Notes: generated by a model from the sequence alone, not told the origin. Positions 1 to 19,941 are shown, counted from the stretch's first letter. The stretch: 33,004 bases of DNA from Candidatus Nealsonbacteria bacterium RIFCSPLOWO2_01_FULL_38_120 (GCA_001821475.1 MHMF01000002.1:1-33004), one strand, 5' to 3'. Translations and numbers: made by a program.

Positions 1-54
1 GAACTGGACGCAGCCGTGGATATGATGGAGGGAAAATTCCCTGTTAACCTTTGA
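1..54 (+). CDS. 3' end of an unidentified CDS entering from outside the window (reads ...ELDAAVDMMEGKFPVNL then TGA)
   Basis: Open frame from base 1 to TGA at 52-54. By eye it is more GC-rich than the next 10 kb. Too short to identify. Confidence 0.3.
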   Translation, partial: ELDAAVDMMEGKFPVNL

Positions 55-62
55 ATACTAAA

Positions 63-1553
63 TTAGAACTTAACGATCTCAAAAGATAACCGCTTATGTT
101 TTGAGGTTTTTTTATTACTGTAATCACCCTCATGTGACCATTTATCTACCTTTCGTTTCCAAACACTACCTGTTATCAATAACTTCAATTTTTTATCTTT
201 CAGATACTTTTTGAGGTACTTTGTCTTTATCATTAACAGGTGGCCATAATTAGCTAATTCAAATCTATCCTCTCCCTGCCTCCCAACATTTCGGTAATAA
301 CCATCTTGCCAATTAAGACAGTATGCTACCAATTCCCGCCCTTTATAATAATTTAATGTGTTTTTCTTTTGGGTTAATTTAAAGTGTTCTATTATCTCTG
401 GCGCGGGGAAAAGTTTTGTGCAATCATCGAAGTCCTCGGAAACAATCCCATACGAGGGAAATAATTTATCTTTCAATACATCGTGTCGATTGCCAGAATC
501 ATCCAAATATAGCCTACCATTTTGTTTTGCTTTTAATGGTAACTCATTTATATAGCAATTTCGACAACTGTAATTCGGCGTAGAAAATTCAAGCTTTCTT
601 GAAATATTAGACACTGGCGGCTTAATAAAACACGCTGTTATATGCCTATCAAACGACTTGTCTTCGTGCTTAAAACTTGAATTTTCGTATAAAGGAAACC
701 ATTCTTTTTTAGGATCAAAAAACTCATAAGTGCTCTTTTTGTTTATTTTTTGTTTAATCCAGATATTGGTTTCTGTTTTTAGTTCTGTGAAGTGCAAGAA
801 GGACGGCCTTTCTTGAACCATAAGCTGGGGCATAGAAGCGTCCCAGTTGCGCTCGTCTATTAAAAATTCTGACCAATCATCATTTCTGGCGGTTAAGTTA
901 TTAACACACCACATCAGAAACATTTGTATCCCGTGTCTGGCAAAATAATTAAGTTTCGTTTCATAACGATTGCCATCAAAATCATGTTGCCAACGTGATG
1001 GCCTCTCTTTCCAATATTGAGTTCCTTTTTTATATCCCAATGCTCTCATATAGGCAAATAATTGTTTGGTTGCTTTTTTACAATCGTATCGAAAAGTTCT
1101 ACATATACGAGACAGCTCATATTTATGATTTCTATCACCTAAGGAATACTCTAAAAAATGATCGCAATTATCGGAAAAATAATCTGCATTTTCTGACCCA
1201 TTTAACTTCGGTATAATTCTTTTAGTAATCCGATTAATGTCCAACACTTGGCCGTCAATCTTATTTAAAATATCTCTGCATAAAAGCGCTATGGAAAAAT
1301 GGTTGGTTTTTAATCCAAGTTTTGCAATTTTAGCGCTCATCGCTTTTACCTTATCCTGGTTTTCGTGGCTGATTGCAAATATAACTCTGAGACTATTCAG
1401 AACGATGTCAAAATTATTTGAATCAAGATTCAAGCCTAATTGTTTTATAGCTTCTGTATTTGACCTCTCTTTAAACAAGCACAATAAAGATTTATTGCGG
1501 TGTGCAACAATTGGCGAATTTAAATATTTAGTAATAAATTCAAGTGTATTCAT
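63..1553 (-). CDS. Hypothetical 496-aa protein with no motif I can name; translationally coupled downstream partner of the STAND NTPase
   Basis: Long uninterrupted ORF. Its ATG (1553-1551) overlaps the TGA (1552-1550) of the upstream 1585-aa gene as ATGA. No P-loop, HTH, or obvious nuclease or peptidase motif recognised. Confidence 0.75.
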   Translation of the reverse strand: MNTLEFITKYLNSPIVAHRNKSLLCLFKERSNTEAIKQLGLNLDSNNFDIVLNSLRVIFAISHENQDKVKAMSAKIAKLGLKTNHFSIALLCRDILNKIDGQVLDINRITKRIIPKLNGSENADYFSDNCDHFLEYSLGDRNHKYELSRICRTFRYDCKKATKQLFAYMRALGYKKGTQYWKERPSRWQHDFDGNRYETKLNYFARHGIQMFLMWCVNNLTARNDDWSEFLIDERNWDASMPQLMVQERPSFLHFTELKTETNIWIKQKINKKSTYEFFDPKKEWFPLYENSSFKHEDKSFDRHITACFIKPPVSNISRKLEFSTPNYSCRNCYINELPLKAKQNGRLYLDDSGNRHDVLKDKLFPSYGIVSEDFDDCTKLFPAPEIIEHFKLTQKKNTLNYYKGRELVAYCLNWQDGYYRNVGRQGEDRFELANYGHLLMIKTKYLKKYLKDKKLKLLITGSVWKRKVDKWSHEGDYSNKKTSKHKRLSFEIVKF

Positions 1554-4500
1554 TTCGATAATGATAAGCGAGTAGACTTATTTACAATCCTTTTCCAATC
1601 TTCAAAAGAATATTTTTTAATTTCGGGAATATATTTATCGATACTATCAGAAGAATAGATAAAAAGCTGAGGAAGATAATAACTACTTCCAGTTAACCTA
1701 CGGATACTTAGCAATAACGCTTTTCTCAATAAGGTTCTCTTTAGGGGAAATTCTATTTTATCCAACTCTTTTATTATCTCTGTCAAATTATACTCTCGAT
1801 CGGATGCGTCTATTTGTTCTAAAACCTCCGAGCGCGTTCTTGTTAGTATCCGTTTATTGTTTGCTTCTGCCGCCTTTTTCATTATAGAGGAGAGCAATTT
1901 GGGGCTGCTTATATTTATCTTGTTTTCCAATCCCCATTTTCTAATTTTTTGCAGATCGACATCGCTAAGAGATGATACCAGTTCCACAATTAAGCTATCT
2001 GTAAAATAACCTTTTGTTTTGGCATATTCACTTATTCTTTTTTGAAGAATATTAATGCGCCCTTTTCTGGCTAAATTTTTTAACTGTTTGATATTTAAGC
2101 CATCATAAGTAACCTTGAACTCAGAATTACTTTTCTCAACCGCTCGGTATCCTTCGCATTCTAATTGCTTCAAATATTTATTAACTTTATTGACAATATC
2201 TTTTAGCGCAGAAGTAGCCAACGCAGCAACGAAGTTTCTTAATAAGTTTATTCTATATGACGGCTCAATATCTGTTTTAAGAATATCTATATATTGACTC
2301 GCCAGCTTCTCAGCAGTTGCATAATCTTCATTTGATAAAGACCATTTTATGACGGTTAGATAAACAGCAGAAATATGTTCAAAATAATCAGAGGAATTTT
2401 CCTCCTTAATATCCATCAATCTTAGAAGCGGTAAGATTTCGGAAATTTCTCTGTATGGATAGCGTTTTACAAAAGTTGATATTATCCTTCTTAATGCTTC
2501 GTTCTGATTCACCTCGCTCTTTACTACGAATGGAAAAAAATAATCCAAAGCCAGATGATAATCTGCATAAGTGGCAGATTCCAAAAAATCAAGTTTCCGA
2601 TACCACGCACCCTCTATAACATTAGAAACACGATCGATTTGCTTTAAAATTGGTGGGAATTGCTCTTTGTCCTGCGTCCTTAAAGTATCTATAAGACTGC
2701 TTATTCTTAAGTCGCCCTTATTCCAAAGACCACGAGAATATCTTAGATTTTTATCAAATATTTCCTCTGCCATCTCTGAGAAGCCTTTATCGGCAGCAAG
2801 AACGGCCAACCTCTTTAGATTATCGCTTTTATTTAAATTATCTAGTTCTTCTTTTTGTCTCCATTCTAACGCCTTATTTAAATAACCCTCTATTTTATCT
2901 TTTAGCAAAGACGATCTAACTGACGACAAATTGATTAGACTTTCTAAAAGATCAACTCGGCTATTTAAATAATCAGCGCCTAGTATATTTTCCAATTTAT
3001 TTAATGCTAACAGAAACTTGTTCGGAAATAAGGAATCTATTATAAAAAAATTATCCCTAATTAAATCTAGGATATCTTGGCTGTAGGGATATAAATTTTT
3101 TTGTATATCAGAAGAATAAATATTAGCCGAAGACTTTATCTCGTCCACCTTTTTCTTGTAAAGCTTTAAGTGAATTTCAAAAGATTTCCAGAAATTTTTC
3201 CAATCAATCTTATCCGCACGCAAAAGCAATCTCTTTTTTGTTATATCTTGTTCTATGGACAGAACTTTTACAAATTCTGGGTTTTCTTTTTCCGAGCTAT
3301 CATTTGATTGTGGAAATTTAGTTTTAAGAGAGGCTGAGTAAAACGCCTCAATATTAAAACCCTTATCTACTAAAGATTTCAACGCTACCCATCTTAAAAA
3401 TGTCTCTCGAGGGTTTCCATTAGACCCCCAATAAGAATATCCGTGATCGTGGGACGGAATTTCTATATCAACCTTAGTCAGTAGATTTAATATTCTCTTC
3501 TTGTAATTTTTAATTTTGTAGATAAATAATGCTTCTGCTAAATCAAGACGTTGGCTTACATTCCTATCGTTGTAGAGATATTTCTCCAAATCATCATCAA
3601 CGAGTAGTTTTTTAAAATCTTGCTTATCAGAAACTTTAATTCCACTGTTTTCAAAAAGTAAATACGTCAAAAGGCGTTCTATCTTAGTGGAACGTTTCAA
3701 ATTTCGAAGCGTCTCTTTTGTGTTAATTTTAAAATTTTGAAGATGTATATCTGAAAGATAGCGACACCTCAAACCTTCAAATATTGCTTTATGTTTTTTA
3801 AAGCCAACTTCTTTCTTGAGGAATCTAATAGCGTTTTTGTATCGATTTGTATTTACTAATGCGCGGGCAAACTGTTCAATATTATTTTCTATATCGTGAC
3901 GTGCATTTTCGTCCTCTCCCCAAAGCAGTTTCCGATTTAATGAAATTCTAAATAAACTATCATCAATAAATCTTTGAGCTAAATTTATACATTTTTTATC
4001 CCTGTTTTCAAAAAGGATATTTCCAATAGCTAATCTTTTAAAAACCCATTCTCGTGTTAACCAGGGTTGATCCCCCATAGGAAGCAATAACTCCTCCTCC
4101 ACTTCCTTTAACAATTTTTCGGTAGCAATCCTAGTCTTTGTATAAATATCTTCATCGTGAACAGTTGGATAAATATCGCTAGCAGTAATTGCGTAATGAA
4201 CCAACTGCTCAATATTATTAGTTTTATAAAAATAATTTACAAAACTTTTACCAATTTCTACTTTTGTTTGGTTATCAAGATTAGACTGAAGTATTTTTTT
4301 ATAGAATTGATCCCGATGAAACTTGGCAAAAATGTTCCTAACAGATAGTTGCGATAAACCAATAGCCTCTAAATGCTTAGTTATATATTTGCGGCCATAT
4401 TCCAAATGTGTATTTTGAGAATAATATTTAGAGATTCTTTGATGATAGGCGCTTTTATCTTTTGATAATTTACTTACCACAAATCTTCTAAAACTATCGT

Positions 4501-6304
4501 GGTATGGTTCAAGTTTTCTACCGCCTCCATCTAGGAAATGCTCAATAGTTTCAATTAAATGATTAAAACTGGCTATTTTAAACTTAGATACAATTTTCCG
4601 CAAATCTTCTCTTGGCACGGGCGAAAAGTGAAAACATAGATAACCTAAGCATTCTCTTTCTTGATTATTTAAACTTTCCCAAATTGGCTTATACCAATCA
4701 AAAACTTCTTTATAGTGTAAATTTGAGCGAATTATACTGTCAACGCCATCGTGGCTATGTAGTTTTTTGCTGAGATAAAATAAAGAAATGGCCAATCCGC
4801 CAGTACCTTTTTTGATAACAGCTATTTGATCCTGAGATAAAGTTATACCTGCTTGTTTAAAATATTCCTTTATTTCCTTCTCACAAAAGTAGAGGTCTAT
4901 ACTGATTTGTTTTTTGATCTTATTAGATAAATTTTTTATTGACTGTGGTAGATATTCTTTTCCCCAGGTACTTAAAAGGAAGACTACACCAGGATAGTTA
5001 ACTAATGGTATGGCATCAAGGACAGATCGATCTTTATACCTATCTGTTTCCACTTGGTCTAGAGCATCAACAATAATAACAATCTTCTTACCTGGCCTCT
5101 GAAGTGCTTTTTCGCTTAACCTCTTTAAAGCTTCATCAAAAGTCTTATCAATGAAATCCTCATTATCTTTAATACCTACAGACATTTTAATTAATCCGAA
5201 TTCATAACATCTCTGGATAATATCTGCTTTAAACCAAGAACTCTTCAAACGATTATTATTGGAATATCCAATTCTTCCCTTACTAACTTCAAATGGACGA
5301 ATGCGACAAAAATATGGTAGAAAATCTGAATTTCTATCCGCCAACATAGAAAGTAAAACAGTTTTTCCTGAACCAGAGGGAGCAAAAAGAAAAACAAATC
5401 CTCCGTCTTTTTTCTTTGCTTCAACCGCTTTAATAATTTTACTTTCAAGATCGGGACGTTCTACATAATTTGGTGGCGCAATTATTTCCTGAAGTAAGCC
5501 TGTTTTTAATCTATCAATTAGTCCGAAAACTCGCTCTGGAAGTATTTCTATCTGGTTAGATGCAAATACCTTTGTAATCCTACCAATAAAAGCATTAATT
5601 CTGTCGTCATCAAATACTCCCTGTTCTTTCAATTTTTCTACGAGCTTCTCATGTAAAGGATCGATATCAGGAAGCTTTTGGAATTGTAAAGCAGAGATAA
5701 AACTCTTCAATTCATTTTTATTAATTAAAGGTTCTTTTTTGCAGTTCAATTCAATATTTTGAATTTCAGAAGAATATTTAGTTTGAAAATTTTGCCAAGA
5801 TAATTTTCTCTTTTTTAATTTCTGAATATCTTTTAGAAAATTATCTAAGTTGCTGGTAGGAGTTTTATTGCTTGCAACAATAAGTCGAATACATTTATTA
5901 CTTTTTTTATGCGTACGCCAGCTTTTGAGAAACTTAAATATGTTTGTTCCTTCCTTAGGATTTTTAGCGTTCGGCCTAGTAGTCCACAAATCACCAAAAC
6001 CCCATTTAGTACCAGTCTTAAGTGTATGCTTAATTTGTATTACTTCGATGCTCCCATCTTTTAAAAATCTTGTTAAATCTTCAATCCTCCTATTGGCTCC
6101 GTCTTTTCTGTCTGGTTTGATTTCTATCTTAAAAACAGACGGATTCTTTTCTACAAGACCCAAAAAACAAAGACCAGCAAATAGTTTTTCAAAATAGAAT
6201 GGAGCGTCTTCATTTTTCACTACTTTAGTCATAAAGTTATACACACTTACATTTTCGTAATATTTTCGGTATACTGTAAGTGTATCACTTAAATTAAGAA
6301 ACAT
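1550..6304 (-). CDS. Tripartite STAND (NACHT-like) P-loop NTPase with an N-terminal DUF4297/Cap4-like PD-(D/E)xK nuclease-like domain and a C-terminal helical sensor region of about 1100 aa (Avs/bNACHT-like antiphage protein)
   Basis: N-terminal block IEDLTRFLKDGSIEVIQIKH (D76, Q91-x-K93, about nt 6029-6082) resembles the D...QxK signature of DUF4297/Cap4 nucleases. Walker A is APSGSGKT at 5360-5383. Walker B is IVIIVDALDQ at 5057-5083 (NACHT-like hhhhDxxD). A long Leu/Lys/Glu-rich tail follows. The track start is TTG 6307; ATG 6304 or the internal ATG at 6232 (M26) are alternatives. Confidence 0.8.
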   Translation of the reverse strand: MFLNLSDTLTVYRKYYENVSVYNFMTKVVKNEDAPFYFEKLFAGLCFLGLVEKNPSVFKIEIKPDRKDGANRRIEDLTRFLKDGSIEVIQIKHTLKTGTKWGFGDLWTTRPNAKNPKEGTNIFKFLKSWRTHKKSNKCIRLIVASNKTPTSNLDNFLKDIQKLKKRKLSWQNFQTKYSSEIQNIELNCKKEPLINKNELKSFISALQFQKLPDIDPLHEKLVEKLKEQGVFDDDRINAFIGRITKVFASNQIEILPERVFGLIDRLKTGLLQEIIAPPNYVERPDLESKIIKAVEAKKKDGGFVFLFAPSGSGKTVLLSMLADRNSDFLPYFCRIRPFEVSKGRIGYSNNNRLKSSWFKADIIQRCYEFGLIKMSVGIKDNEDFIDKTFDEALKRLSEKALQRPGKKIVIIVDALDQVETDRYKDRSVLDAIPLVNYPGVVFLLSTWGKEYLPQSIKNLSNKIKKQISIDLYFCEKEIKEYFKQAGITLSQDQIAVIKKGTGGLAISLFYLSKKLHSHDGVDSIIRSNLHYKEVFDWYKPIWESLNNQERECLGYLCFHFSPVPREDLRKIVSKFKIASFNHLIETIEHFLDGGGRKLEPYHDSFRRFVVSKLSKDKSAYHQRISKYYSQNTHLEYGRKYITKHLEAIGLSQLSVRNIFAKFHRDQFYKKILQSNLDNQTKVEIGKSFVNYFYKTNNIEQLVHYAITASDIYPTVHDEDIYTKTRIATEKLLKEVEEELLLPMGDQPWLTREWVFKRLAIGNILFENRDKKCINLAQRFIDDSLFRISLNRKLLWGEDENARHDIENNIEQFARALVNTNRYKNAIRFLKKEVGFKKHKAIFEGLRCRYLSDIHLQNFKINTKETLRNLKRSTKIERLLTYLLFENSGIKVSDKQDFKKLLVDDDLEKYLYNDRNVSQRLDLAEALFIYKIKNYKKRILNLLTKVDIEIPSHDHGYSYWGSNGNPRETFLRWVALKSLVDKGFNIEAFYSASLKTKFPQSNDSSEKENPEFVKVLSIEQDITKKRLLLRADKIDWKNFWKSFEIHLKLYKKKVDEIKSSANIYSSDIQKNLYPYSQDILDLIRDNFFIIDSLFPNKFLLALNKLENILGADYLNSRVDLLESLINLSSVRSSLLKDKIEGYLNKALEWRQKEELDNLNKSDNLKRLAVLAADKGFSEMAEEIFDKNLRYSRGLWNKGDLRISSLIDTLRTQDKEQFPPILKQIDRVSNVIEGAWYRKLDFLESATYADYHLALDYFFPFVVKSEVNQNEALRRIISTFVKRYPYREISEILPLLRLMDIKEENSSDYFEHISAVYLTVIKWSLSNEDYATAEKLASQYIDILKTDIEPSYRINLLRNFVAALATSALKDIVNKVNKYLKQLECEGYRAVEKSNSEFKVTYDGLNIKQLKNLARKGRINILQKRISEYAKTKGYFTDSLIVELVSSLSDVDLQKIRKWGLENKINISSPKLLSSIMKKAAEANNKRILTRTRSEVLEQIDASDREYNLTEIIKELDKIEFPLKRTLLRKALLLSIRRLTGSSYYLPQLFIYSSDSIDKYIPEIKKYSFEDWKRIVNKSTRLSLSK

Positions 6305-6315
6305 CAATCAAGTTT

Positions 6316-7842
6316 ATGCCTCTTCCAATAACAAAAAGACAAAAACAGGTATTTGATTTTATAAAGGGATATATTGCCGATCGAGGCTACTCTCCCACTT
6401 TTGAAGAAATGAAGAGGGGTCTTAAACTTTCGGCTGTATCAACTGTCTACCAACATATAGATGCCCTCATTAATAAAGGCTATATTAAGAAGTTTGATAA
6501 TATGGCACGGGCTATTGAAATTAATAAAACAAAGAAAAAGAATCGAGACCTTATAGAAATCCCCCTAGTTGGAACAATCGCAGCTGGCGAACCTATAGAA
6601 GCGATAGAAGTGCCAGACAAAACCATCACCCTATCACGAGAAGAACTCCCATCATCTGGTAAACACTACGCTTTGCGGGTGAATGGCAACAGCATGGTTG
6701 ACGATGGTATATTTGACGGAGATATCGTTGTAATTCGTGAACAACAAACTGCCGACAATGGACAGACGGTAGTCGCAATTATTGATGATAATCAAGCAAC
6801 ACTCAAAAGAATCTACCGAGAAAAAAATAGATTTCGTTTACAGCCAGCCAATCAAACCCTCTTGCCTTTTTACAGAACAGAGGTCGAGATTAGGGGTGTG
6901 GTAGTAAAGATCATCAGGGAGCTTGAATCAGCGCAAGATCAGGATAGCGAATTAATTAAATTAATAAAAACGATGCCGCCGACAACTAATGTACACCGAA
7001 CAGCGACATCAGAACCTAATGAGAAAGCAAAACCTTTTATACAATGGGTTGGCGGAAAAAGAGAAATGATTCCTCAATATGAAGAATTCATTCCCAAAAA
7101 ATTTAATACCTATTACGAACCTTTTCTTGGCGGGGGGGCAATGTTCTTCTGTCTCCAACCAGAAAAAGCAGTCTTATCCGACAATAATACCGAGCTTATA
7201 AAAACATATGAGGGAGTAAGAGACAACCCAGAAGAAGTTATAAAAATACTTAAAGAATTAAAATCAAAACATTCTGGAGAACTCTATGCTAAGATTAGAA
7301 ATCTCGATCGGGAGATAAGCATTTTTCATAAACTAAACAATGCTGAAATTGCAGCAAGAATGATTTACCTTAATCAGACCTGCTTCAACGGCCTTTATAG
7401 GGTCAACCAGAAAGGCCAATTTAATGTGCCAATAGGCAGTTCGCTCAATCGCTTAATTTGTGATGAGCACACGCTTCGTAATGCGAGTAAAATATTAAAA
7501 AAAATTACAATCGAAGAAACAGATTTTGATACATCAACGAACGACGCAAAAAAAGATGACTTTATATACTTTGATCCACCCTATTATCCAGTCTCAATTT
7601 ATTCTGATTTTACCAGATATACTAAAGAAAAATTCTACAAGGAAGACCAAATAAGGTTAAAAAACGAAATTGATAGATTGAACAAAATCGGCTGTAAGAT
7701 TATGCTTTCCAACTCGGATTGTGAATTTATAAGGGATTTATATGCGGGTTATAATTTACATAGGGTTTATTCCAGTCGGTCATTAAACTGCAAAAAAGAC
7801 AAGCGAGGCAAAGTATCTGAGCTTCTTATAGTAAATTATTAA
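6316..7842 (+). CDS. Fusion protein: LexA-type repressor (wHTH plus S24 autopeptidase, aa 1 to about 205) joined by a linker to a Dam-family (D12 class, alpha) N6-adenine DNA methyltransferase (aa about 238-508)
   Basis: The N-terminus aligns by eye along E. coli LexA. PLVGTIAAGEPIEA matches the Ala-Gly cleavage site (A90-G91 at 6583-6588). NGNSM carries the catalytic Ser126 (6691-6693). ATLKR carries the catalytic Lys164 (6805-6807). The C-terminal half has Dam motifs QWVGGKR, EPFLGGGAMFF, NQTCFNGLYRVN..FNVP and DPPY (7573-7584). There is no stop codon between the halves. Confidence 0.85.
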   Translation: MPLPITKRQKQVFDFIKGYIADRGYSPTFEEMKRGLKLSAVSTVYQHIDALINKGYIKKFDNMARAIEINKTKKKNRDLIEIPLVGTIAAGEPIEAIEVPDKTITLSREELPSSGKHYALRVNGNSMVDDGIFDGDIVVIREQQTADNGQTVVAIIDDNQATLKRIYREKNRFRLQPANQTLLPFYRTEVEIRGVVVKIIRELESAQDQDSELIKLIKTMPPTTNVHRTATSEPNEKAKPFIQWVGGKREMIPQYEEFIPKKFNTYYEPFLGGGAMFFCLQPEKAVLSDNNTELIKTYEGVRDNPEEVIKILKELKSKHSGELYAKIRNLDREISIFHKLNNAEIAARMIYLNQTCFNGLYRVNQKGQFNVPIGSSLNRLICDEHTLRNASKILKKITIEETDFDTSTNDAKKDDFIYFDPPYYPVSIYSDFTRYTKEKFYKEDQIRLKNEIDRLNKIGCKIMLSNSDCEFIRDLYAGYNLHRVYSSRSLNCKKDKRGKVSELLIVNY

Positions 7843-7843
7843 T

Positions 7844-8902
7844 ATGAGATTTATTGGTAACAAAGAAAAATTATTAGAGCGAATTCATCAGGCCGTATTA
7901 TCTACCAGTGTCAAAGATGGCGTATTTTGCGATTTTTTCTCTGGCACTTCAAATGTCGGCCGCTTTTTCAAAGAAAAGGGGTTCAAAATTATTTCATCTG
8001 ATCTTCTTTATTTTTCATATGTACTTCAAAAAGCTTATATATCAAATAATACCGAACCAAAATTTACAAAGCTTCTTAAGAATATTAAAACGCCTAAAAA
8101 CAATCTCTTCTCTTCTCCATTTGAATCTATCAAAAATTATCTCAATAACTTAAAAGGAGTTAATGGTTTTATTTATAAAAATTACACTGAAGAAGGAACG
8201 AAAAATCAGCAGTATAAGCGAAAATACTTTATTGCAGAAAATGCAAAAAGAATCGATGCTATACGCATTAAAATAGAAGAATGGAAAGAGAAAAATCTGA
8301 TAAATGAAAACGAGTACTTTATTTTATTAGCATCTCTAATAGAAAGTGCTCCTTTCTACGCAAACATATCGGGAGTATATGCCGCATTCCTTAAGCAATA
8401 TGATCCAAGAGCGCTTAAGCGTTTTGAGATGAAATCAATAAAATTTTATTCTGGGAAAAAATCTCATGCAGTTTATAACAAGGATAGCATGGATCTTCTC
8501 AATAATCTTGATGCAGATATCCTTTATATCGACCCTCCATACAACAATAGACAATATGCACCAAATTATCATCTGTTGGAAACTATTGCTAAATATGACA
8601 ACCCCCCAATAAAAGGCGCTACTGGCCTGCGAGATTATAAAAATCAGAAATCAGATTTCTGCAACAAAGAAACTGCGCTAACTGCGCTTGATAAGATAGC
8701 AAAAACGGCTAAGTATAGATATCTAATCCTTAGCTATAATTCCGAGGGCATAATGCCAGAGAAAGATATAATGTCCGTACTAAAAAAATATGGAGAAGTC
8801 ACTCTTCAAAATATCAATTACCCAAGATTTAAGAGCAATAATAACGGAGATTCAAGGCACAAGAAAACAATCCAAGAGCAACTATATATTTTAAGAAGTT
8901 AA
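7844..8902 (+). CDS. Second D12-class (alpha) N6-adenine DNA methyltransferase
   Basis: MRFIGNKEKLL start, FxGxG-type motif DFFSGTSNVG, and DPPY at 8531-8542 (ILYIDPPYNNRQY). It starts 1 nt after the stop of the LexA-Dam ORF. From memory it resembles the N-terminal half of M.FokI; this is unverified. Confidence 0.85.
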   Translation: MRFIGNKEKLLERIHQAVLSTSVKDGVFCDFFSGTSNVGRFFKEKGFKIISSDLLYFSYVLQKAYISNNTEPKFTKLLKNIKTPKNNLFSSPFESIKNYLNNLKGVNGFIYKNYTEEGTKNQQYKRKYFIAENAKRIDAIRIKIEEWKEKNLINENEYFILLASLIESAPFYANISGVYAAFLKQYDPRALKRFEMKSIKFYSGKKSHAVYNKDSMDLLNNLDADILYIDPPYNNRQYAPNYHLLETIAKYDNPPIKGATGLRDYKNQKSDFCNKETALTALDKIAKTAKYRYLILSYNSEGIMPEKDIMSVLKKYGEVTLQNINYPRFKSNNNGDSRHKKTIQEQLYILRS

Positions 8903-10276
8903 AAGATTATTTACTACTTCCTTAAAAATTTCTGGCGGTTGTTTGCCTAAAACTATTTCTCCATTTTCGTTCAATAAGAACCCAATTTGTTTTTCGGCGA
9001 TAGATTTTTCCTTGCTACCGAAAACTACAACTGTCCTTAAGATTGAATCGGGATTGTGCGATGGTTTGATAATTTTCTTCTCAATATATGAGAAGTTTTT
9101 TAATTCGCTGATACCTGATTTACGAGTAGCGTATCTTTTGCCCTCAACGTTTATTATCTGATTTCTTTCAGGATCATAAATAATCATATCTGGGAGATAT
9201 ATAATCATCGTTTTGTCTCCAGATTTATATATTGCTCTTTTGCCTTCCTGGTATTTTCCGATTGCCATTGCTCCTAATGTTTTATGCATAAAATAACCTC
9301 GCTCTGAGCCACCATGATTTGCATAAATTACTTCTGCCTTAGTATATGCTAAAAGCGTAACATGCAAAAAGATTGTAGCCATTTTCTCTTGCGAAGCTTC
9401 GTAGTGCCAATAACTCTCGTGACTAATCGTAACTGGCAGCCTTAAGCCCTCCAGCTTAATATCCAAGTGGTTAGCAATCTGAATAAATTTATTGTCCCTG
9501 CCCAAGTTTTCTTGTTTTAAACCGTGATGAGTAATAATAATATCTTTATCCTTTTCCCATTTTCTAATACATGCAGCGATAATAGTGAGAGCGCCTATGT
9601 TAGGATCATGTCCGATGCCTCCAGATTTATATAACCTCCCAGAAACTTCTATACGATTAGAAAGAATCTTAATCTGAATTGGTACATTACCCGCTGGTGG
9701 TTTTCTCATCGAATTTTTAGCCGAAACTAATTCGGCAAGATTAGAAAATGGCTTCATTACCGCCTCATCATAAACCTTACCCATAATTTCAACCCCGATA
9801 GTCTTTAACATTCTTGTACCGAATATATTTGTTTCTGTTGGTTTTTCCTTTTGAGAAATCTGAAGATTATAAAGCATAATCTTCTTAACGTTCGGATAAT
9901 AAAAATCAATGTAAACGAATTTACTGCATCGTTGATATACTCCCGTATTTCGAGATTCCGAATCGTCAGTCTTGGTTTCCTCAATCGCATATAAAGGTTT
10001 TGAACTCTGATCTGGTTCTTTCTCCTGGTAAAAAACAAGAAAGTCGACAAAGCTGGAATTGCCACTGGCAATTTTGATAAACACATTATCAAAGTCTTTG
10101 GAAACAACACCCTCGGTTTTATAAGTAAACAGAAAATGACCCCCTTTAATAATGGGGACTATGCGTAATTTGTTAATCTTTATCTGAAGATTAAAATCAG
10201 CAGCCATCTTTTCTAAGATAACTTGGATTACGCCACCTTTCGGCATTTCTTCTGTGAGAATCCAAACATTCTTCAT
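8891..10276 (-). CDS. Putative restriction endonuclease (461 aa) with a C-terminal PD-ExK motif
   Basis: It is convergent with the second methyltransferase and overlaps it by 12 nt. The C-terminal motif YLPDMIIYDPERNQIINVEGKRY fits PD...ExK. No other family recognised. The call rests mainly on context. Confidence 0.6.
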   Translation of the reverse strand: MKNVWILTEEMPKGGVIQVILEKMAADFNLQIKINKLRIVPIIKGGHFLFTYKTEGVVSKDFDNVFIKIASGNSSFVDFLVFYQEKEPDQSSKPLYAIEETKTDDSESRNTGVYQRCSKFVYIDFYYPNVKKIMLYNLQISQKEKPTETNIFGTRMLKTIGVEIMGKVYDEAVMKPFSNLAELVSAKNSMRKPPAGNVPIQIKILSNRIEVSGRLYKSGGIGHDPNIGALTIIAACIRKWEKDKDIIITHHGLKQENLGRDNKFIQIANHLDIKLEGLRLPVTISHESYWHYEASQEKMATIFLHVTLLAYTKAEVIYANHGGSERGYFMHKTLGAMAIGKYQEGKRAIYKSGDKTMIIYLPDMIIYDPERNQIINVEGKRYATRKSGISELKNFSYIEKKIIKPSHNPDSILRTVVVFGSKEKSIAEKQIGFLLNENGEIVLGKQPPEIFKEVVNNLLTS

Positions 10277-10657: not shown

Positions 10658-10858
10658 ATGTTGCCCCCAAAAGCCATACAAGAATTCAAAGAATTATACA
10701 AAAAGCGCTACGGCGTGGAGCTTTCCGATGCCGAAGCTTCTTTTCGTGCCAATAACCTTTTCAAGCTCTACAAGATCGTCTACATGGGTGAACCTTCTGT
10801 GGAAGGTCTCGAAATAAAACCAACGAAAAATTATGTCCCAAAACCAAACAATAATTAG
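10658..10858 (+). CDS. Small hypothetical protein (66 aa), first gene of the element's compact plus-strand module
   Basis: The ORF overlaps the next gene by 26 nt, giving phage-like packing. No domain recognised. Confidence 0.5.
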   Translation: MLPPKAIQEFKELYKKRYGVELSDAEASFRANNLFKLYKIVYMGEPSVEGLEIKPTKNYVPKPNNN

Positions 10859-11144
10859 CGAAATTCAATTCTACCCCGTTAAGCCCAAAGATGGTCTTTT
10901 AGGATTTGTTTCATTTGTCGTGGACGACAAGTTTTGGATGGGATCAATAGCGGTATTCACTCGGCTGGAAGGCGGCTATCGTCTGGTTTATCCCACCCGC
11001 AAGGTCGGCAGTCAGAATATAAATATTTTTCACCCGATTAATCGTGACGCAAGTCTACAGGTCGAATCTGCCGTGATCAAAAAAGTAGAACAAATATTTA
11101 ATGAAGATTATAAATCAACCGAACCAACAGAAAAAATGTGGTAA
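10833..11144 (+). CDS. SpoVG-like nucleic-acid-binding protein
   Basis: IQFYPVKPKDGLLGFVSFVVDDKFWMGSIAVF...FHPINRDASLQVESAVIKKV parallels SpoVG. In SpoVG the N-terminal strand is followed by AHPIN and a helix. Confidence 0.7.
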   Translation: MSQNQTIISEIQFYPVKPKDGLLGFVSFVVDDKFWMGSIAVFTRLEGGYRLVYPTRKVGSQNINIFHPINRDASLQVESAVIKKVEQIFNEDYKSTEPTEKMW

Positions 11145-11520
11145 GCACGCAAACTTCTTCCCAGCACCACATAGAGTTTTTGATGATGAAGAACTCCGCA
11201 TTCAGCTGAGCCACGCAGACAGGGATTTTTATATAGCACTTTGCCACTTAGCTAATCGACACGCTAATGAAAATGGATGGTTTCGACACATCGACGGCGA
11301 ATTCAAAACTCTGAAGGGAAAACGAAAAGGATTTGTTTCTTATGGGTTCGGCTCAACAACCTGCAAAAGAGCCAGGAAAAAACTTATAGCTCTTGGCCTA
11401 ATTGAAACAAAAGAAAATCCAGAAAAACGAGGTAAAACAGGTGGCACTATGTATCGAATTTGTATAGAGAGTTGGAATAACCCTATAGACCAAAATGGTC
11501 TTAAGAACAGACCACCATGA
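11101..11520 (+). CDS. Putative winged-helix DNA-binding protein (replication-initiator or regulator-like)
   Basis: The ORF overlaps the upstream gene by 44 nt. The segment FYIALCHLANR...STTCKRARKKLIALGLIE looks like a wHTH. The call is weak. Confidence 0.5.
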   Translation: MKIINQPNQQKKCGKHANFFPAPHRVFDDEELRIQLSHADRDFYIALCHLANRHANENGWFRHIDGEFKTLKGKRKGFVSYGFGSTTCKRARKKLIALGLIETKENPEKRGKTGGTMYRICIESWNNPIDQNGLKNRPP

Positions 11521-11658
11521 GCCATAGCATAAGACCGCAAAGGTCTCCATATTAAAAAAGAAGTATTAAGAAATTAATTAATAAAGCATAAGTAATGCAC
11601 ACAAGCGTGCTAAAAAAATAAATAAATTGTGAATCAAATAAATTCCACAACTTCAAAG

Positions 11659-12237
11659 ATGCCAAAAGAAACCGAACAGCAATACACGGCATGGCTTTTG
11701 TATTGCGAAGCGGGCAGCCTGGTAAAGACATTAATCCTATGGGGTAATGTTGGGCAAAGTGTGGGTGAAATGGGGGTGGAATTTGCCGAACGGCTTGGCA
11801 AAAAACCGAGCGATACGACACTGGAAAGATGGTCGAAAAAATATCACTGGGTTGAAAGGCGTGAGATTAAATTAACGGAAGACTTAGAAGCTCTACGGCA
11901 AAAGACCAAAAAGATAAAGCGAGAAAAACTTCACAAGATCGCTGAGATCTTCGACAAGATCACTAATAAAGTCCTTAAAAGACTTCGGGGAGATGAGGAG
12001 CCTTCCATTTCAGAATGGAAAATGGTCTGGGAGATGTTCCAGATTGAGCTTGGAAAACCGACCAGTAGGGGTGAATTAAAAACAGAATCAGAACAAAGAC
12101 TGCCAACGTCCGAAGAAAGGGAGCATGGGAAAAGACTTCATAAAGCTGTGGAATGGTATTTGGACAATGAACTGGACGATGAAGACAAATGGCAAGAATT
12201 TCAAGAGCTCATTGAGAAAAACAAAAAAACAAGGTAA
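11659..12237 (+). CDS. Hypothetical HTH-like protein, possibly terminase-small-subunit-like or a regulator
   Basis: ATG at 11659; the track starts at GTG 11629. The N-terminal segment QQYTAWLLYCEAGS...TTLERWSKKYHWVERRE resembles phage HTH modules. The C-terminus is charged and coiled. Confidence 0.5.
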   Translation: MPKETEQQYTAWLLYCEAGSLVKTLILWGNVGQSVGEMGVEFAERLGKKPSDTTLERWSKKYHWVERREIKLTEDLEALRQKTKKIKREKLHKIAEIFDKITNKVLKRLRGDEEPSISEWKMVWEMFQIELGKPTSRGELKTESEQRLPTSEEREHGKRLHKAVEWYLDNELDDEDKWQEFQELIEKNKKTR

Positions 12238-12245
12238 AATATAAT

Positions 12246-12388
12246 TGCGTCCTACAAGTTTGAATTAAGGCACAGGGTAATTGCTTCTTTGAAGCCCAAT
12301 TGCGGGCTGAAAGGGGCAGCTATCCTCCACAATTGGTTGCCTTGTGCAATTCAATCTTGTGGGACGCAGGCTCTGGCTGTCCCTTTTT
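12246..12388 (+). promoter_or_regulatory. Structured intergenic RNA element: a long closing helix of about 28 bp and inner helices, overlapping an intrinsic terminator (attenuator or riboswitch-like layout)
   Basis: Arm 12246-12276 (TGCGTCCTACAAGTTTGAATTAAGGCACAGG) pairs with arm 12340-12368 (CCTTGTGCAATTCAATCTTGTGGGACGCA). An inner CCAATTG/CAATTGG helix is present. The terminator GGGAC(12361-12365)...GTCCC(12379-12383) is followed by TTTTT (12384-12388). It shares the GGGAC segment with the long helix. Confidence 0.4.
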
Positions 12389-12482
12389 GTTTTCCTTGAC
12401 TTGCTAAAGCCTTTGACCCATGTTGTGTGTTGAGGGGAGAAATCCCAAAAAATCGAATAAAAAATTAATTAATGAACCAAAT

Positions 12483-13367
12483 ATGACAAATAAAGCCAAA
12501 ATTAGCGCCGTAATCGCCATTGTAGCGGTCTTTGGGGCGAGTTATGGAGTTTATCACCTTATAATCAAAGCACCGCAAAATAAAGGCAATGTTGATGTAA
12601 CTTCAATAAAGACATTCGAGCAATGTTCCGAAGCAAGCTTCCCTATAATCAGGCACTATCCAGATCAGTGCCAAACGCCAGACGGCAGAATCTTCATTAA
12701 TGAAAATCCTCCGAGTGAGGCCGAGCTCGCCAAAGCCGAACAAGCGATCAAAACATTCATGGGAGACCCGAACTTGGAGCTGGAATACATAACGCAAAAT
12801 AGGCATCCCGCAAACTTCGGTATCTATAAACCTGCCGATCCGAACGATCCATCAAATACTGACAAGCAAACAGCAATCCGCTATGACTTTACAGAAGAAT
12901 GGGATCGCCCAGTTTACATCTTCCAGCAAACAGAATACATCAACAACCGATGCGAAGTTTATCAATATCAAGTAACCATAAAAACTAACCAGGTCGTGGA
13001 GATAGGTATGGTCTATCCCGAAGGGCTTCAGGCAGAAGCTTCAATCTCTGGAGAGTGCGGTAATGGATCGCTGGAATGGCCACTTAAAACTAAAGAAGAA
13101 ATCGAGCAAGCAGCCTTCGCATATCTGGGCAGAGACTCAGAACACACGGGCTTTCTGGCAAGATCAGATATTCAGCTCGAATACATCTCAAGCAAACCAG
13201 GCGCAGAAAACCCATCTCATAATGAATGGCGCTGGGAAGATAAAAGCTACAAACTGCCAAAAGGGCTTATTGCTGATCCGTTCCCTTATCCAACAATGAG
13301 AATAATAATGTCGAGTGGTAGAAAGCTGGTTTATTATCTCAACACCACCGATTTATTTAATAACTAA
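12483..13367 (+). CDS. Membrane-anchored or secreted hypothetical protein carried by the element
   Basis: ATG at 12483 gives MTNKAKISAVIAIVAVFGASYGVYHLI, an N-terminal TM or signal anchor. The remainder is hydrophilic with scattered Cys. No family recognised. Confidence 0.65.
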   Translation: MTNKAKISAVIAIVAVFGASYGVYHLIIKAPQNKGNVDVTSIKTFEQCSEASFPIIRHYPDQCQTPDGRIFINENPPSEAELAKAEQAIKTFMGDPNLELEYITQNRHPANFGIYKPADPNDPSNTDKQTAIRYDFTEEWDRPVYIFQQTEYINNRCEVYQYQVTIKTNQVVEIGMVYPEGLQAEASISGECGNGSLEWPLKTKEEIEQAAFAYLGRDSEHTGFLARSDIQLEYISSKPGAENPSHNEWRWEDKSYKLPKGLIADPFPYPTMRIIMSSGRKLVYYLNTTDLFNN

Positions 13368-13368
13368 T

Positions 13369-14973
13369 ATGAGCCAAGAGGACTTATTGAAAATTAAATA
13401 CTTCCTCTACGCCAGAAAATCATCTGAACAAGAAGATCGACAAGTGCTTTCAATCGATTCGCAGAAAAGCGAACTGGAATCAGTTGCTAAAAAAGAAGAA
13501 CTGAATATCGTCGGCCGATTTGAAGAATCATATTCAGCGAAAGACCCAGGCCGAAAAATCTTCAATGAAATAATCGGACGAATTGAAAAAGGTGAAGCCA
13601 ATGCTATTCTCGCCTGGCATCCGAATCGCCTCTCAAGAAATTCAGTAGATACGGGGTATTTGATTTATCTGATGGATCAAAACAAACTTCTCGAAATCCG
13701 AACGCCAGGACAAACATTCAAAAATACTCCGAATGACAAATTTCTTCTTAATCTTCTCTGCAGCCAAGCAAAACTTGAAAACGATAATAAAGGTATAGAC
13801 GTAAAGCGTGGCCTAAGACGCAAAGTAGAACTGGGCTGGCATCCAGGCCCAGCGCCGATCGGCTACTTAAACACTCCAGATAAAGAAAAGGGATTCAAAA
13901 CAATTCGCAAAGACCCGAAAATGTTTCCGATGATCCGCAAAATGTTTGATCTGGTCTTAAGCGGAGATTTTACTGCTCCCCGTGTCCATGAAATTGCAGT
14001 TGAGAAATGGGGCTTAAAGAAATTAGCCCGAAGCGGTTTTTACCGCACGTTGTATAATCCTTTCTATTACGGCTGGTTTGAATGGCCGAGAGGCAGCGGT
14101 AATTGGCGTAAGGGCAAACACGAGCCAATGATTACCAGAGAAGAATTCGATCGCATTCAAGAATTAATGCATCCTGGTCAGAAACCAAAGCCTGAAAAAC
14201 ACACCTTCGCTTATACGGGCATGATCCGCTGCGGTGAATGCGGTTGCATGATTACAGCCGAGAATAAGGTCAAAAGAAATAAACAAGGCGGTGAGCATTA
14301 TTATACTTATTATCGCTGTACCAAGCGTCGTGGGCGATGTAGCCAGAAATACATTGAGGTAAAAGAACTTGAAAAACAAATTACAAAAACGCTGGCTGGC
14401 ATAGAAGTACCGCCGGAATTCCATAATTGGGCTATGACTTGGCTTCGGACTGAAAATACCAGAGAATCTAACGACAGGAATACCATCTTAAATAATTTAC
14501 AGAAAAATTATGAAACCTGCGTCAGAAAACTGGACACACTAATCGACATGCGAGCTTCGGGAGAAATAACCGAAGATGAATTTAATAAAAAGAAAACAGC
14601 CGTAGGCCAAGAAAAGGCACGACTTCAAGAACTTTTGAATGATACTGATAAACGCATAGACAGCTGGCTCGAAACCGCAGACAGGGTTATCAAATTCGCT
14701 TCGGATGCCAGAGAAGCTTTCACTGAGCGAGGCCAGTTAGCGAGAAAGATTATTCTTTCCGCCTTAGGTTCGAACCTACTCTTAAAAGGCAAAAAACTCG
14801 AAATTGACGTACAAAATGCGCTTATGCCAATGATGCTCGTCTCATCTGGGGCAAAAATAAAAACTGGTACGTTCGAACCAGTCAAAACAGGCACAAATAA
14901 AGAGAAAAGCGGAGCTTTTGGCTCTGCTCATCCCATATGGCTCCGCGGGCAGGACTCGAACCTGCAACCTTGA
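13369..14973 (+). CDS. Large serine recombinase (integrase)
   Basis: Resolvase catalytic N-terminus YARKSSEQEDRQVLSIDSQ. Recombinase domain present. Zinc ribbon CGECGC...YYRCTKRRGRC. A coiled-coil C-terminus follows. The probable start is ATG 13369; the track gives 13315. The last 12 codons are antisense to tRNA-Asn. Confidence 0.9.
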   Translation: MSQEDLLKIKYFLYARKSSEQEDRQVLSIDSQKSELESVAKKEELNIVGRFEESYSAKDPGRKIFNEIIGRIEKGEANAILAWHPNRLSRNSVDTGYLIYLMDQNKLLEIRTPGQTFKNTPNDKFLLNLLCSQAKLENDNKGIDVKRGLRRKVELGWHPGPAPIGYLNTPDKEKGFKTIRKDPKMFPMIRKMFDLVLSGDFTAPRVHEIAVEKWGLKKLARSGFYRTLYNPFYYGWFEWPRGSGNWRKGKHEPMITREEFDRIQELMHPGQKPKPEKHTFAYTGMIRCGECGCMITAENKVKRNKQGGEHYYTYYRCTKRRGRCSQKYIEVKELEKQITKTLAGIEVPPEFHNWAMTWLRTENTRESNDRNTILNNLQKNYETCVRKLDTLIDMRASGEITEDEFNKKKTAVGQEKARLQELLNDTDKRIDSWLETADRVIKFASDAREAFTERGQLARKIILSALGSNLLLKGKKLEIDVQNALMPMMLVSSGAKIKTGTFEPVKTGTNKEKSGAFGSAHPIWLRGQDSNLQP

Positions 14974-15012
14974 AGTTAACAGCTTCTTGCTCCACCATTG
15001 AGCTACCGCGGA
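14938..15012 (-). tRNA. tRNA-Asn (anticodon GTT) with encoded CCA
   Basis: Cloverleaf folded by hand. Acceptor stem TCCGCGG/CCGCGGA. D arm GCTC..GAGC. Anticodon loop CTGTTAA. T arm GCAGG-TTCGAGT-CCTGC. Discriminator G followed by CCA. Confidence 0.9.
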
Positions 15013-18963: not shown

Positions 18964-19941
18964 TTAAATTAAATCTAACAAAGTTGGCGCTCCTAATAGT
19001 TGCTCATCGTCTGCTAGAATATTACCTTCTTTCAAAATTTTGGTTCTGCCCCAGCCTATTTCTCCAGTCCGCCTATAATGTAATAAACGAGCAACCATTA
19101 TTTTGCAATAAGCGGGGTTTATATCCATCGTATAACATTTTCTCTTACTTAACTCCGCCTGCAACAATGTAGAGCCAGAGTGCCCAAAAAAATCAACAAC
19201 AAGGTCTCTTTGGTTGCTGCTCGCCTCAATAATCCTCTTGGCGGATTTAAGCGGTTTTTGAGCAAAACAGCCCTCTATATTTTCGTGCATTAAATAAAAA
19301 ACCTGTTGTATATCGTGCCAAACATTTCCCGCCCGAATAGTTAAAGATTTGCTCCGCTCAAAATTTTCTGTTATCTTCCCATTTATTTTTTTGTAATATC
19401 CTTTAGTTTTTTTAGGTATATCTGTATATTCGGCCCGAACATCAAAAATTGGCTCACCCTTAATGTAGTAAAGTAATTCTTGTCGAATTGCCATCCAGTT
19501 TTTTTGCGTCCCATATCCTCGTTGATTCCTCATTGTTATGAAATTCCTGATGCTTACGGGCTTATTTCTCATCATAATTATAAAATCGGGAAGTGGCTGC
19601 AAGCCGTCTCTAATATCCGCCCCAAGCCAGACATAAAAAGAGGAATTTTTATCAAGAATATCTATTGTATTATCAACCCATTTTTCACTCCAACCAATAT
19701 ATTGATTAAGCGGCAGATTTCCAAATTCATCATTTATATCAACATTATATGGCGGGTCTTGGATGGCAAGAATCGCTTTTTCATCCCGCATCAATTTTTT
19801 AACATCTTCCTTTTTTGAAACATCAAGACAGCCAACCCTATGACCGCTAATCGGGTCTTCCCAAATAAAACCGTACTCAAAATCAGGAATTTTAACTATT
19901 GTCTTATTATTTATTTTTTTTCTGTCTTGGACTATCGGCAT
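18964..19941 (-). CDS. Beta-class N6-adenine (N4/N6 family) DNA methyltransferase
   Basis: DPPY at 19747-19758 (AIQDPPYNV) precedes the C-terminal SAM motif DFFGHSGSTLLQAE. This circularly permuted order is typical of beta-class enzymes. Confidence 0.85.
   Translation of the reverse strand: MPIVQDRKKINNKTIVKIPDFEYGFIWEDPISGHRVGCLDVSKKEDVKKLMRDEKAILAIQDPPYNVDINDEFGNLPLNQYIGWSEKWVDNTIDILDKNSSFYVWLGADIRDGLQPLPDFIIMMRNKPVSIRNFITMRNQRGYGTQKNWMAIRQELLYYIKGEPIFDVRAEYTDIPKKTKGYYKKINGKITENFERSKSLTIRAGNVWHDIQQVFYLMHENIEGCFAQKPLKSAKRIIEASSNQRDLVVDFFGHSGSTLLQAELSKRKCYTMDINPAYCKIMVARLLHYRRTGEIGWGRTKILKEGNILADDEQLLGAPTLLDLI

Follow-up and report, generated by a model that had tools for sequence, protein, structure and literature searches.

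Why should the gene for a large protein with the hallmarks of a nuclease and a nucleoside triphosphatase (NTPase) be joined, through four overlapping nucleotides, to a gene for a second large protein that belongs to no recognisable family? The question is raised by a stretch of 33,004 nucleotides from Candidatus Nealsonbacteria bacterium RIFCSPLOWO2_01_FULL_38_120 (GCA_001821475.1, MHMF01000002.1:1-33004), the whole of which was analysed and is referred to as the window. An initial annotation of this DNA described two open reading frames (ORFs) sharing an ATGA at positions 1550-1553, and both are present on the minus strand, at 1550-6307 and at 63-1553. We refer to the first as gene A and to the second, which encodes 496 residues from an ATG start, as gene B; at the stop/start overlap the strand reads TCG AAA TGA / ATG AAT. 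The length of 1585 residues previously given for the product of gene A stands for the mechanical ORF, counted from a TTG at 6307, and not for the probable protein: homologues of gene A all begin in register at the ATG at 6232 (MTKVVKNEDAPFYFE), and for this reason the true start is almost certainly that ATG, which places gene A at 1550-6232 and gives a product of 1560 residues. Residue numbers below are those of the 1560-residue protein (the earlier numbering is higher by 25).

The partner was initially suggested to be a new kind of component (a second effector, a decoy, an assembly factor or an inhibitor) and the pair to be a two-component variant. Instead, gene B matches the C-terminal ~500 residues of single-chain antiviral STAND (Avs) proteins, as seen in the fold of structure 8DGC, in the metagenomic protein P0060 and in C-terminal matches to the Avs3a model, and the pair is better described as a gene split inside the sensor domain of an Avs-like protein. 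Our favoured reading, to which we assign a probability of about 0.65, is that the locus encodes an Avs-type pattern-recognition system, similar to the nucleotide-binding leucine-rich repeat (NLR) receptors, in which the sensor domain is divided between two polypeptides. The reading is carried by the identities of the domains, the colinearity of the two genes with a single-chain relative, the specific match between the fold of gene B and that of SeAvs3, the unfailing juxtaposition of the two genes and the parallel divergence of their products.

Gene B, its relatives and its pairing with gene A

The first annotation found no motif in the 496-residue ORF, and gene B likewise has no match in Pfam, PADLOC or NCBIfam. 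An AlphaFold2 model of its product, based on a 21-sequence family alignment, has a predicted local distance difference test (pLDDT) value of 87.9 and a predicted template modelling (pTM) score of 0.86. The model comprises two parts. Residues 1-280 (714-1553, minus strand) are predicted to form ARM/HEAT-like helical repeats, an assignment based on the secondary structure of the model together with weak ARM-repeat fold and profile matches; residues 281-496 (66-713, minus strand) make up a domain rich in beta-strands, which the model places at 285-494. When the model was compared with 350,542 chains of the PDB using Foldseek, the sole significant matches were to chains A and B of 8DGC, that is, to SeAvs3 in complex with the terminase of PhiV-1 (for 8dgc_A, E = 1.3e-13, probability 1.00 and query TM-score (TMq) 0.63 over 524 columns). 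Every other match is to an ARM-repeat protein, with E > 0.03. In sequence, gene B and SeAvs3 have only 14% of residues in common. The notion that gene B is a viral mimic or decoy was also considered and was rejected, the model having no structural relative in BFVD (best E = 0.16).

Further information comes from relatives in which the equivalent of gene B is not a separate protein. A search for relatives with a gene B hidden Markov model (HMM) covered 1.84 billion representative proteins and returned 11 matches in all. P0060, a protein of 2058 residues, is matched by this HMM at residues 1563-2037. Alignment of profiles with hhalign paired gene B with residues 1563-2033 of P0060 (probability 98%, 447 columns) and gene A, up to its residue 1471, with residues 14-1437 (probability 99.5%, 1279 columns). 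Gene A and gene B are thus colinear with a single chain, and the lengths agree: 1560 and 496 residues together make 2056, compared to 2058 for P0060 and 2028 for SeAvs3. P0060 contains an unambiguous Cap4/SAVED_PDDEXK nuclease (3e-20) and an Avs1b-like NTPase (1e-33 with PADLOC, 2e-26 with NCBIfam), its matches to the Avs1b models amounting to 92-114 bits and being confined to the NTPase region. It therefore has the same Cap4–STAND–sensor order as the two genes of the window, but it is a single chain, shares ~20% identity with them, is uncharacterised and lies on a metagenomic contig of 7 kb.

The place at which the sensor is divided may itself be telling. The last residues of gene A (...S-M/I-R-L-S-L-S-K; 1553-1580, minus strand) are among the best conserved of the C-terminal third of the protein and stand directly before the split, while the corresponding junction in P0060 is a proline-rich, linker-like stretch (...LPPLDEKYTWLGDFQPTEATPASL...). 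Because the tail of gene A is conserved up to the split and the junction in P0060 resembles a linker, these data suggest a division between domains, with the tail perhaps serving for docking.

Three other relatives, P0056, P0057 and P0062, match positions 1969-2070 of the 2083-position NCBIfam Avs3a model with their own C-termini, and do so colinearly; the matches are individually weak (E = 0.009-0.06) and mutually consistent. In EcAvs2 and SeAvs3, which otherwise differ in their TPR domains, the C-terminal sensor is a common beta-rich domain, and in both it attaches to the same face of the terminase ATPase (PMC13601566); in SeAvs3, Y1714 and the H1770 loop contact the ATP bound by terminase, the H1770 loop being reportedly essential for Avs3 immunity (bioRxiv 10.64898/2026.08.25.746987). 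Both Y1714 and the H1770 loop lie within the last ~500 residues of SeAvs3. We infer that the beta-rich domain of gene B is the equivalent of the C-terminal sensor common to Avs2 and Avs3.

The distant relatives occur both as single chains and as stand-alone proteins: P0063 is a Cap4–STAND protein of 1777 residues, truncated at its N-terminus, with a C-terminus like gene B, and P0061 is a stand-alone relative of gene B (495 residues, on a contig of 1.5 kb). As both arrangements are found (P0060 being the other single chain), fusion or fission of the gene B module may have taken place more than once. P0062 (709 residues) was a candidate for a second, independent split, and was rejected: members of its 90%-identity cluster measure 286-1169 residues and lie on short contigs, and P0062 probably represents a piece of some fused protein resembling P0063. 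Scans of metagenomes for P0060 and P0062 found nothing.

If gene B is part of the same receptor as gene A, then the degree to which the two keep company is of particular interest. The family is small: among 5.8 billion proteins there are 26 clusters of gene B and 28 of gene A, and members are full length throughout (~495-507 residues for gene B, 1540-1586 for gene A). We compared the window with 13 further distinct loci, chosen partly by way of gene B and partly by way of the most divergent homologues of gene A (down to 36% identity). In all 14 a homologue of gene A is followed directly by a homologue of gene B (hmmsearch E values of 1e-123 to 1e-249). The gap between them is -4 nucleotides (ATGA) in the window and eight other loci, and -1, +1, +4, +4 and +6 nucleotides in the remaining five. 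Pairwise identities of the A and B proteins are correlated (r = 0.94), and the two have diverged to the same extent (means of 43% and 42%). The suggestion that this is a tightly coupled, obligatory two-gene unit is thus borne out by conservation of the neighbours, which adjoin at gaps of -4 to +6 nucleotides in 14 of 14 loci.

The genes on either side of the pair, by contrast, vary from locus to locus, and include serine and tyrosine recombinases, type III restriction-modification (R-M) systems, TIR, HEPN-AbiU2, SocA/Panacea and a reverse transcriptase–protease. Because the neighbours differ, we conclude that the pair is a mobile, self-contained two-gene module of defence contexts, a cassette carried as cargo by small integrative elements and defence islands. 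A scan of 185,579 species genomes with one family alignment (A1) found five loci: one in Nomurabacteria, one in a metagenome-assembled genome (MAG) labelled 'Saccharibacteria', one in Parcubacteria and two in Ignavibacteria. A large homology search with a widened alignment of the C-terminal module (A3) returned only the 26 known proteins.

The window is 93.7% identical at the DNA level to a contig of Candidatus Nomurabacteria GW2011_GWF2_43_8, a bacterium of the Candidate Phyla Radiation (CPR). Two loci, from MAGs labelled Nomurabacteria and Saccharibacteria, contain the cassette together with its R-M neighbours and align to positions 1-9541 of the window with 93.6-93.7% identity; gene B is 98-99% identical in each. 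Such likeness reflects either very recent transfer between CPR phyla or an error of binning or labelling.

Nuclease, NTPase and helical arm of gene A

The N-terminal ~245 residues of gene A (5498-6232, minus strand) are identified by HMM, hhalign, AlphaFold2 and Foldseek as a Cap4/DUF4297-type nuclease domain of the PD-(D/E)xK class. The PADLOC model of an endonuclease effector of the cyclic oligonucleotide-based antiphage signalling systems (CBASS; PDLC00741) matches 10 of 24 members of the gene A family (best E = 1.9e-8), the SAVED_PDDEXK model matches 6 of 24, and the N-terminus aligns by hhalign to that of P0060, which itself matches Cap4-type nuclease models at 3e-20. An AlphaFold2 model covering residues 1-1200 (pLDDT 80.7, pTM 0.48) places helices (H) and strands (E) in the order H7-25, E33-40, E50-57, E62-68, H97-109 and E115-121, which amounts to an alpha-beta-beta-beta-alpha-beta core; among the Foldseek matches of this model are Cap4 (6vm5, E = 1.5e-3) and HamA (8zue, E = 1.8e-5). 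The block IEDLTRFLKDGSIEVIQIKH, noted earlier for its D...QxK signature, contains the putative catalytic residues D52 and Q66-x-K68 (previously D77, Q91 and K93; 6029-6079, minus strand). All three are invariant in 24 of 24 members, and in the model strand two of the core (E50-57) bears D52, while strand three (E62-68) bears Q66-x-K68. E15 and P40-D41 are likewise invariant in the 24-member alignment.

The nuclease is followed by a STAND NTPase module at residues ~255-640 (4313-5470, minus strand; boundaries approximate), recognised with Pfam, NCBIfam and Foldseek. Pfam NPHP3_N, described as a NACHT-type P-loop family, matches residues 265-398 (E = 5.6e-6) and recurs in all 24 family members, and nSTAND, ATPase_2 and KAP matches are also present in the family; Pfam NACHT itself (PF05729), examined as a check for bNACHT, matches one member of 24 (E = 0.0075). 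The helical/winged-helix region of the NCBIfam Avs1b model matches the NTPase at E = 6e-7. Walker A (APSGSGKT, with K290) lies at 5360-5383 and Walker B (IVIIVDALDQ, with D389 and D392) at 5054-5083, both on the minus strand and both as first described; G287, G289, K290, T291, D389 and D392 are invariant in the 24-member alignment. The top Foldseek matches of the gene A model are the STAND-TPR protein 6mfv, plant NLRs, MalT, Apaf-1 and AVAST5. The nuclease-STAND architecture originally proposed is therefore upheld by the Cap4 models (10/24), by NPHP3_N (24/24), by the modelled core and by Foldseek matches to STAND, NLR and Cap4 proteins.

The remainder of gene A, residues ~641-1560 (1553-4312, minus strand; ending ...RLSLSK), appears to be an alpha-helical, TPR-like sensor arm. 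Here too the previous description, of helical sequence after the NTPase, agrees with the model, which is helical up to residue 1200; the stretch beyond is colinear by hhalign with a helical region of P0060. Gene A showed no sign of a beta-rich domain like the C-terminal sensor, either in the model to residue 1200 or in the remainder as judged from that colinearity. Taken by itself, the modelled gene A looks like a generic nuclease-STAND protein. The Cap4 effectors of CBASS were considered as a possible home for it, and the match is confined to the nuclease (~12-236 of 489 model positions); neither a SAVED domain nor a cyclase was found in the window.

A proposed sensor in two pieces and the alternatives

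How might such a system operate? If the sensor is divided in the manner proposed, then gene A would contribute the effector, a Cap4-like DNase, together with the STAND NTPase and the greater part of the helical sensor arm; gene B would add the final ARM/TPR-like repeats and the C-terminal sensor with its beta-rich fold. The tightness of the coupling between the genes (ATGA in nine loci, including the window) suggests that A and B are synthesised side by side and join in a non-covalent complex, the N-terminal repeats of B extending the C-terminal solenoid of A and so rebuilding a clamp-like sensor; the same coupling may serve to supply matched amounts of each. The beta-rich domain of B and the helical arm of A would then clamp a conserved phage protein. 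The likeliest target is the large terminase, grasped by way of its ATPase domain, because the homologous C-terminal sensor of Avs2 and Avs3 binds the terminase ATPase. Binding of the ligand would lift autoinhibition, the NTPase would exchange nucleotide and, once bound to ATP, would oligomerise; the oligomer is a tetramer in Avs3, Avs4 and Avs7. Oligomerisation would gather the N-terminal Cap4 domains, upon which double-stranded DNA would be degraded and the infection aborted.

A bolder version casts the detached subunit as an adaptor that roams free until it has taken hold of the phage protein, docking on the nuclease-STAND chassis only afterwards, making the locus a bacterial sensor/helper pair like the paired NLRs of plants. 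We consider this doubtful. Were it true, specificity could be exchanged by swapping gene B, and the threshold of activation could be set by the stoichiometry of the subunits.

Several results weigh against an Avs-type system with a divided sensor. Sequence and profile searches of both proteins against the PDB yielded only P-loop and ARM-repeat noise and no Avs structure, and neither protein reached the threshold of any Avs model in PADLOC or NCBIfam. SeAvs3 (8dgc) is absent from the top 50 Foldseek matches of the gene A model; since gene A fails to retrieve it, the Avs3-specific signal is that of gene B. Moreover, Foldseek gives no aligned residues of 8dgc, and gene B is consequently placed on the C-terminus of SeAvs3 by means of the fused relative, the three individually weak HMM matches and the published description of the domains. 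A scan of viral contigs with alignment A1 found no homologue. As for the trigger and the need for gene B, we infer both, the former by extrapolation from Avs2 and Avs3.

The alternative to which we give most weight retains a split, Avs-like sensor and changes what it senses: another phage protein, such as portal or capsid, or a cue that is not a protein at all, would take the place of the large terminase. Avs families of similar architecture sense many different phage proteins (PMC13581612); gene B and SeAvs3 are no more than 14% identical; and the hosts, CPR bacteria and Ignavibacteria, have phages that are poorly known. Against this, the one significant structural relative of gene B is a terminase sensor, and in Avs2 and Avs3, which otherwise differ, the C-terminal sensor binds the same terminase surface. 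We judge a different trigger to be unlikely, though with an appreciable share of the probability.

A second possibility, which we think improbable, gives gene B a regulatory role: as an inhibitor or guard present in stoichiometric amounts, it would hold the nuclease-STAND protein in check until infection removed or modified it, in the manner of a guard/decoy or toxin-antitoxin pair. A separate polypeptide, held at a fixed ratio by overlapping genes, would suit such a role, and so would the analogy with SeAvs7, whose sensor C-lobe helps to keep both the NTPase and the Cap4 domain autoinhibited (PMC12803255); a detached C-lobe could, by this analogy, act mainly as a brake. However, gene B has a colinear homologue at the C-terminus of the fused, single-chain relatives, its modelled fold is that of the ligand-binding part of SeAvs3, and there is no sign that it is unstable or cleavable. 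The two ideas are in part compatible, as a sensor lobe could inhibit and sense alike.

Gene B might also be a dispensable accessory, gene A being a complete single-gene Avs. The precedent is Avs8B, the second gene of the Avs8 (PD-lambda-4) operon, which is dispensable for defence (PMC12236752). An accessory of this kind sits poorly with co-occurrence in 14 of 14 loci and with co-divergence at equal rates (r = 0.94) maintained down to 36% identity; fused relatives exist, and gene A shows no beta-rich C-terminal sensor of its own, being helical to residue 1200 in the model and colinear thereafter with a helical region of P0060. The odds on this explanation are correspondingly low. Lastly, the split could be spurious, one gene of 2056 residues having been broken up by the frameshift of a pseudogene or by faulty assembly, since a single-base indel can mimic the -1 frame relation at ATGA, but we dismiss this on the grounds that the position of the split is constant across 14 independent loci, drawn from various samples and phyla, that the junction takes five forms (ATGA, TAATG, TAATATG, TAA + 4 nucleotides + ATG and TAA + 6 nucleotides + ATG), and that gene B always has its own ATG, with both ORFs intact down to 36-42% identity.

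To which of the known systems, then, is the proposed divided receptor closest? It possesses the broad features of Avs proteins: a STAND P-loop NTPase with Walker A and B motifs, an effector domain at the N-terminus and a large repeat sensor, here made up of the helical arm of gene A and the repeats and beta-rich domain of gene B. Where it departs from them is in the presence of effector, NTPase and sensor on one polypeptide, the chain being interrupted at one conserved position in all 14 loci. The statement in the initial annotation that Avs proteins usually act as single genes is roughly true, and is qualified by the two-gene Avs8A/B (PMC12236752) and by a split-TPR form of Avs1 (PMC13601566).

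Like Avs3 (AVAST type 3; SeAvs3, PDB 8DGC), the system combines a Cap4-type nuclease bearing D...QxK, a STAND NTPase and a long helical sensor, and its gene B model has the fold of the SeAvs3 sensor specifically. It differs in consisting of two polypeptides rather than one and in its hosts, which are CPR bacteria and Ignavibacteria, not Proteobacteria, and neither protein of the window matches the NCBIfam Avs3a equivalog (NF041816, cut-off 2800 bits) or the PADLOC Avs3 models. Avs1 (AVAST type 1) has a claim by way of Avs1b, the best named HMM match of the NTPase/helical region (6e-7 in the window), and Avs1 reportedly resembles Avs3 in structure and has terminase as its trigger. The match is far from the cut-off (27 bits for gene A, compared to the 1500 required), none of the 24 family members matches PADLOC Avs1b at E ≤ 0.01, and the NCBIfam Avs1b model describes a protease effector, whereas that of the window is a Cap4 nuclease. 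The resemblance to Avs8A/Avs8B is one of layout: a nuclease-STAND gene and then a gene without recognisable family. Avs8A, however, has an Mrr nuclease as its effector and senses the major capsid protein, and Avs8B is dispensable and is not described as part of the sensor, of which gene B is a piece. By these comparisons the system appears to act like an Avs, closest to the group of Avs1 and Avs3.

The idea of split Avs proteins is already in the literature, where it is mentioned only in passing. A 'split-TPR variant of Avs1', which might prove to be the same family, appears in PMC13601566, and 'split proteins' are mentioned in the methods of PMC13581612. None of the loci read has, next to the cassette, a Upx-like gene (a large gene with a C-terminal nuclease); the association with split Avs1 is reported only 'in some cases', which makes this weak evidence. 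What we rate as new is the arrangement of a rare family of CPR bacteria and Ignavibacteria, whose C-terminal sensor module comes from a separate, tightly coupled gene.

If the divided-sensor reading is correct, then an orphan family of 496-residue 'hypothetical proteins' and a family of 1560-residue STAND proteins, missed by the models of defence finders (PADLOC 2.0 and NCBIfam recognise neither gene as Avs), are accounted for, and Avs-type immunity extends to CPR/Patescibacteria (Nomurabacteria, Parcubacteria) and to Ignavibacteria. The locus would provide a natural bacterial NLR-like receptor in two pieces, the ligand-binding C-terminal sensor being a separate protein. Its parts could be expressed separately, titrated, swapped and fused, permitting direct tests of how occupancy is relayed to the NTPase and of autoinhibition by the sensor lobe. 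Annotators, too, should take note: where a STAND gene has a 'partner of unknown function' at its side, that partner may be a piece broken off from the sensor.

Genomic setting of the cassette

The locus was previously placed beside an R-M system in an AT-rich block resembling a defence island, and on each point the sequence concurs. A type II R-M system lies divergent from gene A at 6316-10276 (both strands), and comprises two Dam-class methyltransferases (MTases) and a restriction endonuclease (REase) on the minus strand, the type II REase match having an E value of 3e-51; this neighbour supports the defence-island setting. GC content is 0.31-0.37 over 1-10 kb, compared to 0.39-0.47 in most of the remaining window, where a second block of low GC is found at 24-28 kb. 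Scans for promoters and terminators over positions 1-6600 gave sites no more numerous than in shuffled sequence, and a megablast of the locus against plasmids gave no match.

The first of the two MTases (6316-7842, plus strand) is a fusion: a LexA-type DNA-binding domain of the helix-turn-helix kind (residues 4-66) and an S24 self-cleaving peptidase (83-197) precede a Dam-class D12 N6-adenine MTase (244-487). The attachment to an R-M methylase of a LexA-like, possibly DNA-damage-responsive repressor module is unusual, and could couple expression of the methylase, or of the whole R-M system, to activation of RecA.

Beyond the REase are a small SpoVG-like protein (10833-11144, plus strand), three ORFs of 139, 202 and 315 residues without match in Pfam or PADLOC (11101-13367), and a large serine recombinase (552 residues, with a SHOCT motif), which ends inside a tRNA-Asn gene on the opposite strand (14938-15012), the two genes together covering 13315-15012. 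The housekeeping genes rpoD and dnaG come directly after the tRNA. Both the termination of the recombinase within tRNA-Asn and the low GC content over 1-10 kb point to an integrative island that entered at tRNA-Asn; it would occupy positions 1 to ~15,000, and its other end would lie beyond the window.

Elsewhere in the window there is an N4/N6 MTase at 18964-19941 (minus strand). An N6 MTase resembling Eco57I and MmeI (25149-26609, minus strand) stands among ORFs without family match inside the AT-rich block at 24-28 kb (GC 0.29-0.34), which may be another patch of defence or mobile genes.

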